A stretch of DNA of 63,510 nt, filler included, from Collodictyon triciliatum (lineage: Eukaryota): the NCBI GenBank assembly GCA_043381765.1. It is 7 parts of 7 records of this genome, joined end to end, with 100 filler letters (N's around TTAATTAATTAA, not from the genome) between each part and the next. Parts side by side here need not be neighbours in the genome. Positions count along the whole stretch, not along the records: positions 10,989 to 21,836 come from JBHJMP010002540.1; 6 more parts are not named here. One strand, given 5' to 3'. Every line of letters begins with the position of its first letter. Position 1 is the stretch's first letter. Shown here piece after piece: positions 10,989-19,600 of the stretch. The notes beneath the pieces were generated by a model. That model saw only the letters and a program-made list of their open reading frames with translations. It had not been told where the DNA came from and searched no databases. A program made the position numbers and the translations under genes.

Positions 10989-11324
10989 AGCCCGGAGCGA
11001 CGCCGTTTATCAGTGGATATGTACCGCGCTCGTCTCTATTACATATAAAGATATCATGACAGTGAGCGTTAAAAATGGAAAGTAAATAGTAAAATTGCTA
11101 GGGAACTAAAGAAGACGGTAGTCACGGGGAGTATTTATTTGCGGTTATGATTGGGGGGGGGGGAAGTGTTGGGCTACAAACCCTGCAGGGTCGTCCACAT
11201 TGAAAATTATGGAGTTCATGTAAATGTCGTTTCCAACAGCTGGGACCACAGTCTTTCCTTGGGTCTTGTACATGTTCCAGATGTTTGCTTTATTCACGTT
11301 GGAGGGTACAAGAATGTCTGACAG
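10989..11324. repeat. Outer inverted repeat, left copy (near-identical reverse complement of 18058-18395)
   Basis: Exon 6, the whole following intron and the start of exon 7 match 18058-18395 almost base for base; the match runs to the contig end. Confidence 0.95.
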
Positions 11325-11605
11325 CTGCGATTGTTTCATTATGAATTTAAAATTTATGAATGTACAGGACTCTTGATTAACGAAGCAATGGTATTCTAAA
11401 AGAGAATGAGAGTATTTTGTTTTTGTGAGTCACATTTTCTTACATTTGGGTCGATTGGAGAGTCGTCTCCCCCACCAAAGGCATTTGCGAGCAGTGCATT
11501 TTTGTCAACACGACGGTACATTCCAAAGTTTTCCGAACCGCACCATACAGTGTAAGCCCAGTCATAGCGAGGTGTTCCAGTCTGTTGTCAGCGATTTTTA
11601 ATGAA

Positions 11606-11636
<31 letters not shown>

Positions 11637-12749
11637 AAGGAAAAGAATCGAGTGGAGAAAAAAAAAAGGGAAGAGGAACGAAAGGTTGAGACAGAGGAAG
11701 AGTCGTACCATATTTTTTGGGAAAACGGCACTGATAGTCGTGTTCTTTATCTGTATTTTCGTGAAATAAATATTGAGCTTTGATTCGGTACCATAGATTC
11801 GGAATGAAAAATACAAGACATTCATGGAATGTACAACCCAAACAATTTTTTGGTTTTTGTTTTCAAAATAAAAAAAAAATATTCCCACCGTGGGTCTGTT
11901 CGAGTAGATTGTCCTGTTTTGGGAGAGATAACCAGCTCGCTTGTCTATAGCTGAGTAGAAATTTGTAGTCCATACTTCGAGCTCGAATGCATACTCATTC
12001 ATCACGTTTGCCCTGTGTTGGTAGTAATCGGGGCGTGTGTCTAGACTTCCACTGTAGAAACGTCTATCTGCATCGACAAAGACTTGGCACACTTGGTGGC
12101 AAACTATCACAATAAAAAAAAAGTGACAATATCGATCAGTATGTAGTTTATGTATATACAAATGTCTTTTAAATAATGACGGGAATGTTTCATGCCTGTA
12201 CATTTTCATGGAAACCAGTGTTTTGAAATTTGGTATTGGAAAAACATACTGCATCCAAGACCAATGGAAAGATCGTGCTCGCGGAAGGTGAAGTCGAAGT
12301 AGGTGTTGTCGTCGTCGTAAGAGACAGCGAAGCGTGTCAAGTCAAAGAGTCCAGGCAGATATTCCTTTCCAAGAGGGTATATGCGTCCCTCGTCAAAGGC
12401 GTCGTCATCATGGTCAAAGACAGTGACGAAATTCTAGGCACAGGGTTTAGAAAAAGCGTCAAACTTAATTTATCGCTGCTCAAGCATTCAATAAATTGTA
12501 AGAAAAAAAGAAAAGGAAACTTGTATGTAAAATATAAAGTTGTTTGGGATACCAGAAATAAAATCAAACAAAACCACACGAGCTGCTAATAAATAGAAAA
12601 TAATAATAATAACAGTAACAATAACAATAATAAAACAGAGTACTTTGTCTAAAAATGAAAGAGGATCAAGATGCTTTTAGACTTACCCCGTCTGCCAGCG
12701 TTCCAGTGACGAAAACGACGAGGAGAAGGCAAAGTGTTGTGGAGCACAT
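10989..12749 (-). CDS. Secreted glucodextranase-C/DOMON-like domain protein, paralog A (3' truncated by contig end)
   Basis: Signal-peptide exon MCSTTLCLLLVVFVTGTLADG (12749-12687), then DEGRIYP..PGLFDLTRF, CQVFVDADRR, DWAYTVWCGSE, FGGGDD..DPN, DILVP; intron positions match paralog B. Confidence 0.75.
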
Positions 12750-15266: not shown

Positions 15267-15516
15267 TCTGTCGGGCAAATCGGTTTAGTCTCCCTCCTCC
15301 GTCACTCGCCCCATCCGCGCTGTTTGCCTATCTTGTCCGCTGCTCCTTCCTTCTGTCAAGAAAACCGCTCCCTGGAATTTGCAATCTCGGCGTCTTTTGA
15401 ACCGTCTCTGGTCTGCCTGGTGCGTTGGCAGGTCATTCTTCCATCCTCGCTTGTCTCGTCTCGCTTTTCCCTATTTTTTTTTCTTTTATGTCCTCTCGGC
15501 AAAGTCAGAAACGACA

Positions 15517-16420
15517 AATTGTCACCGCGATGCTCTTTCGTTCTATGCACAACCACTCCGGATTCGTCGTAACCGACACTCCGGCCGTTTTTTTTCGTGT
15601 TCTAACGGATACCACACACCCGCTACTACCTAATCCAATCAGACATCTCACTGCACCACACCCTTATTCGTCCGAGAAATGTATCTTATTCTCCCGCTGT
15701 TTTTTCTCCTCTTTCTTTGAAAAGTCAGATTTTGCGGGCGCACTCTATTTTTTTCTTATATTACAAACTCAATCCAAAACTCGCAACCCTACATTCTGTC
15801 CCCTGTACTTATACCCCTTCGTCCAAACTCATATATAAACTCACATTCTATCCCACACCCTTATAAAAATCCCCGGCTCATTCCACAATGCTCCTTCAAT
15901 CCTTCATTTCTTCAGTCCTTTCGGCCACTTTAAAACACAAACCCAACAAAGTCCCGCCCAATGCTCCGGTCCGTTCGTCTTTGCTTCTTGGGTGTCTTGT
16001 CCATTCTCTTTTTGCTTTTACTTTTCAAAGTCTTTCACTTTCCACACAATTCAATGAAAAAGTCTTTGTCCACTTCGGCCTTTTATTCGTTTCTTTCATG
16101 GCCGTTTCCATCCCCATCCCGTCCACCCATCCATCCCTCTGCTCGCCCAAGTGTTTGGTGTTTTCTTTTATTTTGAGTCCAAAGCACAACAGACGGGTGA
16201 TATTCTCACAAACGAACTTTTTCCACTTAGCCTCTCCTTTGTCTCTCTCTTTCCCTCTCTGCTCATTGATTATTGGTTATGAGTTGCCTGTGATTGTGCC
16301 ACGTCTTTCACGCACGCATCTGAGCCAAAGAGCAACCATAGTCTTGCGCGAGAAGGCGATCACATCGCCACCATCTCGAGACACTCATCCCCACAACAAT
16401 AACCTTCATTTTTTTTCTTT
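15517..16420. repeat. Inner ~900-bp inverted repeat, right arm
   Basis: aattgtcaccgcgatgctctttcg...aaccttcattttttttcttt is the reverse complement of 13033-13932. Confidence 0.95.
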
Positions 16421-16641
16421 TGCCATCACATCAGCCCAAATCAAAAACCTACAAAAAAAAAAAATACACTACTACAAACAAAAATATTACCACGAAATTG
16501 AAATGCATATCATAGAAAGGATTTCCACCCTCGAGCCCCAACCAACACCACAATCCGGAGCGGCAACCTTCGTCTGCCTGCAAAACAAATACAAGGCCGC
16601 CCGAATCCGCGTCTGTCAGAGTGTCACACAAACACAACCCG

Positions 16642-19600
16642 ATGCAATCCCTTCGTTTGGCTCTTCTGGCCGTTGGCTTCACTGCAGCCCTCCTTCTGCT
16701 GCCCGTCAAAGTCTTTGCCGTAAGTAGGCCATATTCGAGTATTATGTTTCGCTTGTTTCAAACTCTGCCCAAAGAACAATGATCGTAAAATAAAATTAAA
16801 AAGATGCCTCCAACGTGTCAAAACTCAATCCTTTCATGGCATCCCTTTGCTAACCCCTATTTTTTTTAAAAAAAAAAAAAAACTGGCCCTAGATCGTAGA
16901 GACTGTTGTGTACGATCACCCCGATCCCAGGCATGATGAGGGTCGACTTTACCCACTGAGCCCAAACTTCAGTCCAGGAGTCTTTGACATTACAAACTTC
17001 AAAGTCTCCCACGACTCTACCAATGCGTACTTTACCCTTTCCTTCCGTGGCATCAACAATAACTTCAACGGCTTCTATGGTATGGTTTTCTTTCTTATCT
17101 TATTTCTGTCTTTCTCTTATCAAGAATGAATTATTCTAATTTTAATTTACTTTTTCACTTCCTTGACTAATGAATCCATATATACGTATATAACAGGATT
17201 CTCTATGGAAATGTGCCAGATCTTTGTTGACGCAGACCGTCGCTTCGATAGTGGCAGCTACGACTCGTTCAAGTCCAGTGTAAACTCTGTCACAGACTTT
17301 GACTCGGAGTACCCCTATGAGTTCACTTTGTTCTTTCACGGCTGGTATTGCTATGCAAAGTCTGTGGATGATTACATGGGAACTCCAGCCAGAACAATAT
17401 ACCCTCGTCCCTCTGTAGTAAGTTCATGTTGTATTTTCCATGACTGACGATATTATTCCATGCATAACAATTAAGATGAAACTGACTAGAACATATTTTC
17501 ACTAAATAATAATAATAACTAAGGTCAATATAACCAACATCGTTGTGCCCGTTCCTTTGTCATTTGTGAGTATGCCCTATCTTCATCAAGAATTTGGCAA
17601 AAAAAAAAATACTTTGTTTGATTCAAAGCTATATAGAATTGTTTTTTTTTTATTCTTCCTTTCAACTTTTTGTGCACGACCGAGGGGGGGTGTTGGCTAA
17701 AGCTATATAGAATTGTTATGATATCTTTGAAAGAGTGATAAATCACTTTGTTACGTAAGCGATAATAATGATTAGTGTACCCCTAATAATAACCTCACTA
17801 TTCTGATTCGCAGACTGGAACACCTCGCAGCGACTGGGCTTACACAGTATGGTGCGGATCTGAAGACTTTGGGAGCTTTCGCAACGTCATCAAAGTCCCT
17901 CTTGAATGGGTCGCTGGAGGTGGAGACGATGGCGTGACAGATCCAAACGTGAGCTATAACCCCAATTCCTCCGTACTACAAGAATAACATCACCAAAGAC
18001 TTTCCCCTTTCCCTATCACGTTCAAGCTATGAGAATAACTCTCTTGTCCTCTCATAGCTCCTGGATATTCTTGTACCCTCCAACGTCAACAAAACCGATA
18101 TCTGGAACATGTACAAGACCCAAGGAAAGACCGTGGTCCCAGCTGTAGGAAACGACATTTACATGAACTCCATAATTTTCAATGTGGACGACCCTGCAGG
18201 GTTTGTAGCCCAACACTTTTTTTTTCCCCCCAATCATAACCGCAAATAAATACTCCCCGTGACTACCGTCTTCTTTAGTTATTTAGCAATTTTACTATTT
18301 ACTTTCCATTTTTAACGCTCACTGTCATGATATCTTTATATGTAATAGAGACGAGCGCGGTACATATCCACTGATAAACGGCGTCGCTCCGGGCTCGTTC
18401 GATATTGTCAACTTCAAGGTTAGATTGCACTTCACTCCGCCCGCTCGCCATGAGCGAATAATACACTTTTCTTCGATATATTTTTCTTTTTCTTTTTCCT
18501 TTATGTTTTGTCATTTTTTTATATTTTCATTTGGTCTTATTTTTATTTTTTTTTGGAATCAAGGTCATGGAGAATCCAAAGTACGTCATCTTTCGTGTCA
18601 GAGTGACAAAATTATCAGAGGATAAAACAAAGCAAAATAAGTTCAAGAACCTCCTGCTGCACTTCTATGTGGATACTGATAGAATGTATTAGACTGTATT
18701 CAGAACAAACAACCAAATAATTACATATCTTAGCATCATGTGCTACATGCTTGATTACTCTGGTCTATTCGATTTTCTAAACACATGTGACCACTTGACA
18801 GCTTCCTCTCAGGACAGCAATCCAGCTTGTCCGACGCAGCGTTCAATATCGCCGACGATAAGTACACCATCTCTCTCTCTCTCTGTCAAGATGGCGCGTT
18901 ATTCATACAGGACTCGGTCACTTTACATATGACAATTTGCAACACCTTTTTTTCCTCCCATTCATTCTTATTTTTATTTCTCTGGTTTGATTGATTGATC
19001 AGTTTTTTCAATACAGGGGATGGGAGTTTGCTATTTCGATTGACGGAGACCAGGTTGTAATGACACGAGTCCAGTCATCCAGCGATTCCTCGACCAGCAC
19101 CGTCACCACAGGGTTCGTTGTGTACGCCAGCAACAATATTGTGCAGGTAGACAATTCAATCCAGCGGTGTATAACTTCAATATATTTTCAATCATGTAGA
19201 GTACTTGTATGTACATAAGGGTCATTTCACACAGTCTCATCGATTCTATCCGATAACAACTTAGGTTTCCGTATTAAAATCAGATTTACAAGGACTGCCA
19301 AGCCTGTCAGATACTACTCATTGGGAGTATATCGTAGCATCGGGATACTCTGATAACCACAAGATGCTTCCGTTCAAACAAAGCGTATTCTTTCTTAACT
19401 ATTTGATGTGAGGTGCAATAGGAATATGCACTTTGGAGATATCAAAGACACCTAAGAGACAAATCAACTTACTTTGTTGTGTGCTGTATGGCAGGCAAGC
19501 GCGAGCAGCTTCGGCGGGGGGCTGGACGGCAAAAGTACATCCAATGTGGTAGACATCATCGACTTCAACAACCTAGCGCAGTCCAAGGTACGCAACACAT

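Follow-up and report, generated by a model that had tools for sequence, protein, structure and literature searches.

Two inverted paralogs of Collodictyon triciliatum with an old island of divergence between near-identical blocks: a candidate case of gene conversion

In the genome of the protist Collodictyon triciliatum (assembly GCA_043381765.1), two genes lie head to head as an inverted pair. Their first parts are strongly diverged, and from within their sixth exon onward they are almost copies of each other. This raises the question of how two so different ages can occur side by side in one pair of genes. The DNA analysed, called the window in the following (63,510 nucleotides), consists of seven contigs joined by N spacers, and the pair, here named paralog A and paralog B, is located on the contig 10989-21836 (10,848 bp). 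The mosaic had been proposed from a first reading of the sequence and turned out to be real, with a shared exon structure, diverged 5′ parts, and near-identical blocks in both copies. It is probably, although with considerable doubt, the product of non-allelic gene conversion between the inverted paralogs, which would have left an old island of divergence standing.

Structure and divergence of the inverted pair

The exon phases of A and B agree and the exon lengths match nearly, with 184/187, 215/221, 42/42, 138/135, 143/143, and 47/47 nt (A/B) for exons 2-7, and all their introns have GT..AG borders. Over alignment columns, the identity between both copies amounts to 0.51, 0.60, 0.55, 0.50, and 0.68 in exons 1-5 and to 0.38-0.54 in introns 1-5, which are effectively unalignable. 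The same applies to the stretch between the start codon and the inner repeat described below (0.46). In contrast, exon 6 reaches 0.909, intron 6 reaches 0.932 (138 of 148 columns), and exon 7 is identical (47 of 47 nt).

For the codon alignment, the proportions of synonymous (pS) and non-synonymous (pN) differences were obtained as Nei-Gojobori counts. In the 192 codons of exons 2-5, pS is 0.82, which is saturated, and pN is 0.40. The first 15 codons of exon 6 show a pS of 0.66 and a pN of 0.10, being old as DNA and conserved as protein, and the next 48 codons after the breakpoint have a pS of 0.06 and a pN of 0. The ancestry changes abruptly along the alignment, neutral sites included. A single old duplication, already doubted in the sequence-only reading, is insufficient to produce these values, so that homogenisation or a recent exchange is needed. 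The idea of diversifying selection on the first domain, which had been attached to it, was not borne out. Since synonymous sites and introns are diverged as well and pN lies below pS, the variable part is old at neutral sites too, rather than visibly fast-evolving. In the tree of module 1 described below, the end branch of B (0.38) is no longer than that of A (0.41).

The change of regime sits within exon 6, between 18099 and 18132 (in A between 11283 and 11250), and not at the start of this exon, where the switch in identity had first been placed. Of the 13 differences in exon 6, 11 fall into its first 42 nt. The breakpoint is located 33 codons before module 2 of the encoded protein and coincides with neither a splice site nor a module border.

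Comparison of the reverse complement of the contig's left half with its right half by blastn gave five matches. The inner one (13935-13037 against 15514-16414) shows 96.1% identity over 904 columns and the outer one (11318-10989 against 18064-18395) 94.3% over 332 columns; the remaining three, with lengths of only 49, 44, and 62 nt, are weak (75-89%). The second inverted pair inside the first one is present as described before, apart from its coordinates, which had been given as 13033-13932 and 15517-16420. After the breakpoint, the outer block is about 98% identical, its 296 nt containing 5 substitutions and a change in one homopolymer, and A and B do not differ in the final 112 nt before the contig end. 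In the inner block the differences are spread evenly and amount to 3.7%, compared to about 2% for the outer block. Both borders of the old island are sharp. An open reading frame (ORF) of 272 amino acids in the left arm of the inner repeat is without a Pfam match, and the right arm does not preserve it. The coordinates of all features are given in Table 1.

The breaks of the contig at 10989 and 21836 are real contig ends, and the left one falls within the identity of A and B, as had been noticed before. All 11 other contig ends visible in the window lie in homopolymers or microsatellites, whereas complex sequence is found at both ends of this contig. These two ends stand apart, since breaks in the assembly otherwise evidently fall at simple repeats. 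The end at 10989 was probably caused by 3′ parts of A and B that are too alike for a short-read assembler, and for this reason 18284-21836 may represent both copies. Paralog A presumably extends as a full gene past 10989.

Table 1. Positions of the two paralogs, the old and young blocks, and the spacer gene in the window.
Feature	Position	Strand	Remarks
Paralog A	10989..12749	-	7 exons, cut by the contig end in exon 7; GT..AG borders
Paralog A, exons	12749-12687, 12433-12250, 12103-11889, 11750-11709, 11581-11444, 11324-11182, 11035-10989	-	
Paralog B	16642..21822	+	20 exons, 890 codons, still open at the contig end; model from coordinates
Old island, copy A	11284..13036	-	5′ flank, untranslated region (UTR), exons 1-5, introns 1-5, first 15 codons of exon 6
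Old island, copy B	16415..18099	+	counterpart of 11284..13036
Outer young block, copy A	10989..11283	-	rest of exon 6, intron 6, first 47 nt of exon 7; reaches the contig end
Outer young block, copy B	18100..18395	+	inverted match to 10989..11283
Inner inverted repeat, left arm	13037..13935		non-coding; 288 nt upstream of the ATG of A; sharp ends
Inner inverted repeat, right arm	15514..16414		228 nt upstream of the ATG of B
FG-GAP_2 repeat gene	14145..15086	-	intronless ORF; PF14312 at 1.6e-11; within the 1.6-kb unique spacer 13936-15513

Four public runs (X1-X4), all in the form of Logan contigs, were aligned to the contig. X1 and X2 were taken as cDNA because of the presence of spliced joints, and X3 and X4 yielded DNA contigs. 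Paralog A is transcribed and spliced: intron 1 (X1, X2), intron 2 (X2), intron 4 (X2), and intron 5 (X1) were seen spliced. For B, introns 7-12 were seen spliced (X1). Both cDNA runs together cover exons 1-7 of A and B-like exons 7-13; exons 1-6 of B are uncovered, which carries no evidential weight on the expression of B. The 3′ contigs resembling exons 7-13 of B may originate from A or from B.

Further observations concern single positions of the gene models. One X2 contig runs unspliced through intron 3 of A (11751-11888), which is open in frame, and intron 3 of B has stops; the read-through is either an intron retention or a wrong intron call. At the 5′ end of the A transcript, an X1 cDNA contig has 22 letters beyond 12929 that are absent from the window, and an X2 contig of A likewise begins 22 letters before its first aligned base. 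These letters could represent an upstream 5′ exon or a spliced leader, and a comparison by eye gave no clear source. An X1 transcript contig matches exons 7-13 of B except for a patch in exon 11 (19301-19321) with at least 11 changed letters (15 in the whole piece), which may be the unseen 3′ part of A, an allele, or a micro-conversion patch. In intron 4 of B (17639-17698), the summed depth in X1 and in X2 is very high (bin depth 250-293). The element located there has a 38-nt match of 92% at 57233-57268 on another contig of the window and may be a dispersed repeat or an abundant small RNA. Finally, X3 and X4 joints with inserted letters (e.g., 11360 to 21138) fall into simple sequence rich in AT and were discarded as false.

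Protein family and age of the diverged part

The hmmscan search against Pfam-A, performed with eight exons of B (E up to 1) and two exons of A (E up to 0.01), gave matches to Glucodextran_C (PF09985) and to no other family, and the label of DOMON genes, under which the pair had first been described, was given up. At a Pfam gathering cut-off of 22 bits, exon 20 of B scores 60.7 bits (2e-16), exon 2 of B 36.8 bits (3.9e-9), and exon 2 of A 29.5 bits (6.5e-7). Scanned singly, five of the eight B exons are without a match, as is expected for short pieces. Paralog A encodes a signal-peptide-like N-terminus, a Glucodextran_C-like module 1, and the beginning of module 2. Paralog B encodes a signal-peptide-like N-terminus, modules 1-3, and most of module 4. 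The signal peptides of both were judged by eye.

An exhaustive HMMER search with exon 20 of B against 1.84 billion representatives yielded 25 proteins at E up to 0.001. The only close relative found in this search is P0001, whose cluster consists of three Trinity isoforms (P0001, P0026, and P0027; TRINITY_DN156) from the EukProt transcriptome of Diphylleia rotans. This homologue is known from transcripts, without genomic context. The longest isoform, P0026, has a length of 1633 amino acids and comprises six PF09985 modules and a protein kinase domain, with a hydrophobic stretch between the modules and the kinase that was read by eye as a membrane span. Residues 10-890 of B are collinear with residues 9-885 of P0026 (47% over 882 residues) and show the same module order. 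Based on this homology, A and B most likely represent the ectodomain-encoding parts of receptor-type kinases, and in both the contig ends before a membrane or kinase part is reached.

PF09985 is known from prokaryotic glycosidases and surface proteins, and its mentions in the available excerpts of the literature concern bacteria or archaea, and some of these mentions deal with glycoside hydrolases. In Diphylleia it builds the ectodomains of six-module receptor-type kinases and, judged from the homology, likely does so in C. triciliatum as well. These kinases may be of more interest than the repeat itself.

In module 1 (exons 2-5), the identity is 54.7% between A and Diphylleia, 42.2% between A and B, and 42.7% between B and Diphylleia. 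The site patterns agree with this order, as A shares 41 sites with Diphylleia, B shares 18 with Diphylleia, and A and B share 17. In exons 6-7, A and B are 95% identical, compared to 57-60% to Diphylleia. A tree was calculated from the variable part of module 1 and rooted by other modules of B and Diphylleia (11 rows), and a second one was run without the two long rows Dr_M5 and Dr_M6 (9 rows). Both show the topology (B,(A,Diphylleia)), with a support of 96/96 in the first and 98/97 in the second. The path from A to B in module 1 amounts to 1.4 changes per site, compared to a between-genus distance of 0.74-0.82, with 0.82 for the path from A to Diphylleia. Modules 2, 3, and 4 of B each pair with the same-numbered modules of Diphylleia.

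A module 1 of the B type was not found outside the window in the protein searches, which are weak negatives. In word-index protein searches, exon 20 of B gave no match among 1004 candidates and exon 5 of B none among 2 candidates, both with longer lengths, and residues 1-300 of P0026 gave only their own cluster among 1196 candidates. A metagenome scan with exon 6 of B and its flank resulted in 221 pattern matches, none of which was confirmed by tblastn. Among the three members of the Diphylleia cluster, only the A-type module 1 is present. A further paralog of A or B was not found on the other six contigs of the window.

Origin of the mosaic

Under the favoured explanation, A and B are inverted paralogs that would form the arms of an imperfect palindrome around a spacer of 1.6 kb with an FG-GAP gene, and their product would be a surface protein of tandem Glucodextran_C-like modules. 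Interlocus conversion from arm to arm, by non-allelic homologous recombination, would keep two blocks at 96-98%, namely the 0.9-kb block upstream of the genes and everything from codon 16 of exon 6 onward. The island of 1.7 kb, in which the core promoter and 5′ UTR are followed by the signal peptide, by module 1 and its introns, and by the initial 15 codons of exon 6, would no longer be entered by conversion. Either it may be too diverged for heteroduplex formation, or selection may keep two distinct outermost modules and promoters, or both. The outcome would be two receptors with different membrane-distal modules and promoters and with nearly the same body. The arbitrary position of the breakpoint within exon 6 looks like the end of a conversion tract, and conversion rather than a single replacement event seems to have made the mosaic.

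Two observations hint at an exchange between strains. At 16195, 16198, and 16202, an X1 contig on the right inner arm has the letters of the left arm, and at the other distinguishing sites that it spans those of the right arm. At site 11250 of copy A, the letter of B is found in X1 and X3. Both are equally explained by recent mutation in the strain of the window, and this is one of several points that weigh against conversion in an old pair. The approximately unbiased (AU) test disfavours A and B as sisters in module 1 but fails to reject them (p 0.079 with 11 rows and 0.064 with 9 rows), so that an island older than the split from Diphylleia is favoured, not proven. The B-type module 1 was found in no other organism, although one would be expected from an old duplication, barring its loss or lack of expression. 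Copy A was seen up to 10989, and in none of the four runs does a contig cross either end of the stretch. Furthermore, with one genome, repeated conversion is indistinguishable from a one-time replacement, and the similar ages of the inner (3.7%) and outer (about 2%) blocks also fit one recent duplication.

The latter leads to an alternative in which one inverted duplication of a segment with the upstream block and the entire gene took place recently, about 2-4% divergence ago, and a distant third member of the family then overwrote the 5′ cassette of 1.7 kb in one copy, probably in B, by a single recombination event. On this one contig it fits equally well. The similar divergence of the two young blocks slightly favours it, and the sharpness of both island borders agrees with it. 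A and B are closer to each other than to Diphylleia in exons 6-7 and not in exons 2-5, which a duplication with one replacement gives just the same. Moreover, module 1 of A (55%) and the shared body (57-60%) are about equally far from Diphylleia, so that A looks original and the cassette of B foreign. At 20301-21492, a 1004-nt X2 transcript contig is identical to exon 15 of B (159 nt, 0 differences) and afterwards matches only in 31-nt patches. Together with the X1 contig that is changed in exon 11, it hints at family members that are patchily rather than uniformly alike. It also hints at another mosaic member of the family, as this alternative would have it. However, the third paralog was missing from the other six contigs of the window and the B-type module from the protein searches, both of which are weak negatives. 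Duplication with replacement is regarded as unlikely, though still credible.

An artefact of the assembly is far less probable. The left 300 nt of the contig would then be a fold-back or a graph jump into B, and A would be without such exons 6 and 7. The position of the contig end inside the identity and the final 112 nt shared with B would fit this, as would an assembly that consists of short contigs. However, copy A of the outer block is not the sequence of B, since it shows the 13 differences in exon 6, deviates in a homopolymer, and has a patch of 3 nt within intron 6. In addition, one independent X1 cDNA contig links exon 5 of A (0 differences) to an A-type exon 6 (1 difference) and to 33 nt of exon 7. 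These 33 nt were placed on the B copy, with the joint labelled as 'opposite strands', exon 7 being identical in both copies. The joint was considered as an inverted form and dismissed, as it represents the splicing of intron 6 of A with an ambiguous placement of exon 7. DNA contigs of X3 and X4 with a length of 151 nt match parts of A and of the B island at 0-1 differences, and an X3 contig spans 11123-11275. Inverted self-matches of at least 150 nt occur on one of the seven contigs of the window, the contig 10989-21836, and on none of the other six, which argues against a systematic fold-back by the assembler. Based on the cDNA linkage, the DNA contigs, and the A-specific differences inside the block, the junction of exons 5 and 6 of A is real. 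A chimeric contig end at 10989-11324, against which the sequence-only reading had cautioned, is ruled out, and the artefact is largely refuted.

Hardly any weight was given to a programmed or frequent inversion switch either, which had been proposed as the alternative to homogenisation and in which flips would re-pair the N-terminal cassettes with the other gene body in the manner of a shufflon or of phase variation. The geometry permits it, as the segments are flanked by inverted repeats of at least 296 nt and of 900 nt, between which homologous recombination can cause a flip, and the outer repeat is located inside the coding region, 33 codons before module 2. However, the 10.8-kb contig carries A, B, and the FG-GAP gene only and shows no recombinase (the 272-amino-acid ORF of the repeat being without a Pfam match), although one could be encoded elsewhere. 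With their length and a divergence of 2-4%, the repeats differ from short specific sites, and the breakpoint is at neither a module nor an exon border. If the bodies are nearly identical, a flip alters little. Among the contigs of X1-X4 no joint requires the inverted form, and none of them bridges a repeat into unique sequence on both sides. In a further-reaching version, the nested repeats would be a eukaryotic shuffling device, in which outer flips re-pair two ancient cassettes of promoter and sensor module with two non-identical receptor-kinase bodies. This is a long shot; if it were true, conversion would keep the joints matched, and one locus would supply a clonal protist population with several combinations of receptors.

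That the young blocks are old as well and were frozen by strong purifying selection, e.g., on a regulatory element or an intronic RNA, can practically be discarded despite the sharp bounds of these blocks, because constraint would have to act on an intron, on synonymous sites, and on 0.9 kb of non-coding DNA, whose differences are evenly distributed, the fold of intron 6 is no better than that of shuffles (z 0.45), and no Rfam match exists at E up to 1 in intron 6 or elsewhere on the contig. The conservation of the young blocks is not explained by function.

The gene in the spacer between the arms has FG-GAP clusters as its atlas matches. Its GC content is 0.77, with a GC3 (GC at third codon positions) of 0.95, compared to a GC content of 0.39 for the window and a GC3 of 0.55 for B. 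This GC richness could reflect biased conversion at the centre of the palindrome or a foreign origin. X1 and X2 cDNA contigs cover 14037-15135 and continue from the centre into the AT-rich flank, and the GC-rich centre as a foreign chimera was dropped for this reason. A transposon with the 0.9-kb repeats as its termini around the FG-GAP gene was dropped as well, since there is no copy elsewhere in the window and no transposase.

Comparison with known systems

On the favoured reading, the pair represents a clean and small case of mosaic evolution in inverted paralogs, in which the breakpoint is mapped within 33 nt and an outgroup dates the island, and it comes from a lineage of poorly sampled protists. 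Trees from the 3′ part and from module 1 will conflict, which affects annotation, copy-number, and phylogenetic work, and the locus will cause breaks or collapses in short-read assemblies. A and B differ precisely in the outermost module and in the promoter, as would be expected if they sense different ligands under different conditions.

Bacterial shufflons and phase-variation switches rely on a dedicated site-specific recombinase and on short specific sites, and their alternative cassettes lack promoters. The locus of A and B resembles shufflons in that an inversion at its inverted repeats inside coding sequence could connect alternative variable parts with one constant part. Unlike in shufflons, no recombinase is seen on the contig and the repeats are both long and diverged. 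Each copy is furnished with a promoter and a start codon of its own, and A is transcribed and spliced by itself.

A likeness seems to exist to the palindromes of the mammalian Y and X chromosomes, in which, according to the available sections of the studies, inverted gene-bearing arms around a unique spacer are kept alike by intrachromosomal arm-to-arm conversion (PMC8600007; 10.1101/800185; PMC3403216). The arms of the sex-chromosome palindromes are described in these sections as far longer than 10 kb and more than 99% identical throughout, whereas the arms of A and B comprise at least 3 kb on the contig at 96-98%, are broken by a saturated block of 1.7 kb, and occur in a protist.

A peak of divergence in duplicates under gene conversion was reportedly treated by Teshima and Innan in 2008. 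Such peaks are also discussed in the accessible part of another study, where they are read as the result of selection or of sequence divergence blocking conversion (PMC3924837). As in exon 5 of the red and green opsin genes, the divergence of A and B is confined to one part of the gene, with homogenised flanks and introns (PMC3924837). Read as a conversion island, the mosaic would be a peak of divergence of an already described kind, here in a palindrome-like setting. The opsin peak, as presented in that part of the study, comprises few sites in one exon of tandem copies, whereas the island of A and B spans 1.7 kb, including a promoter region of its own and five exons with introns that do not align, is found in inverted copies, and appears to be at least as old as the genus-level split.

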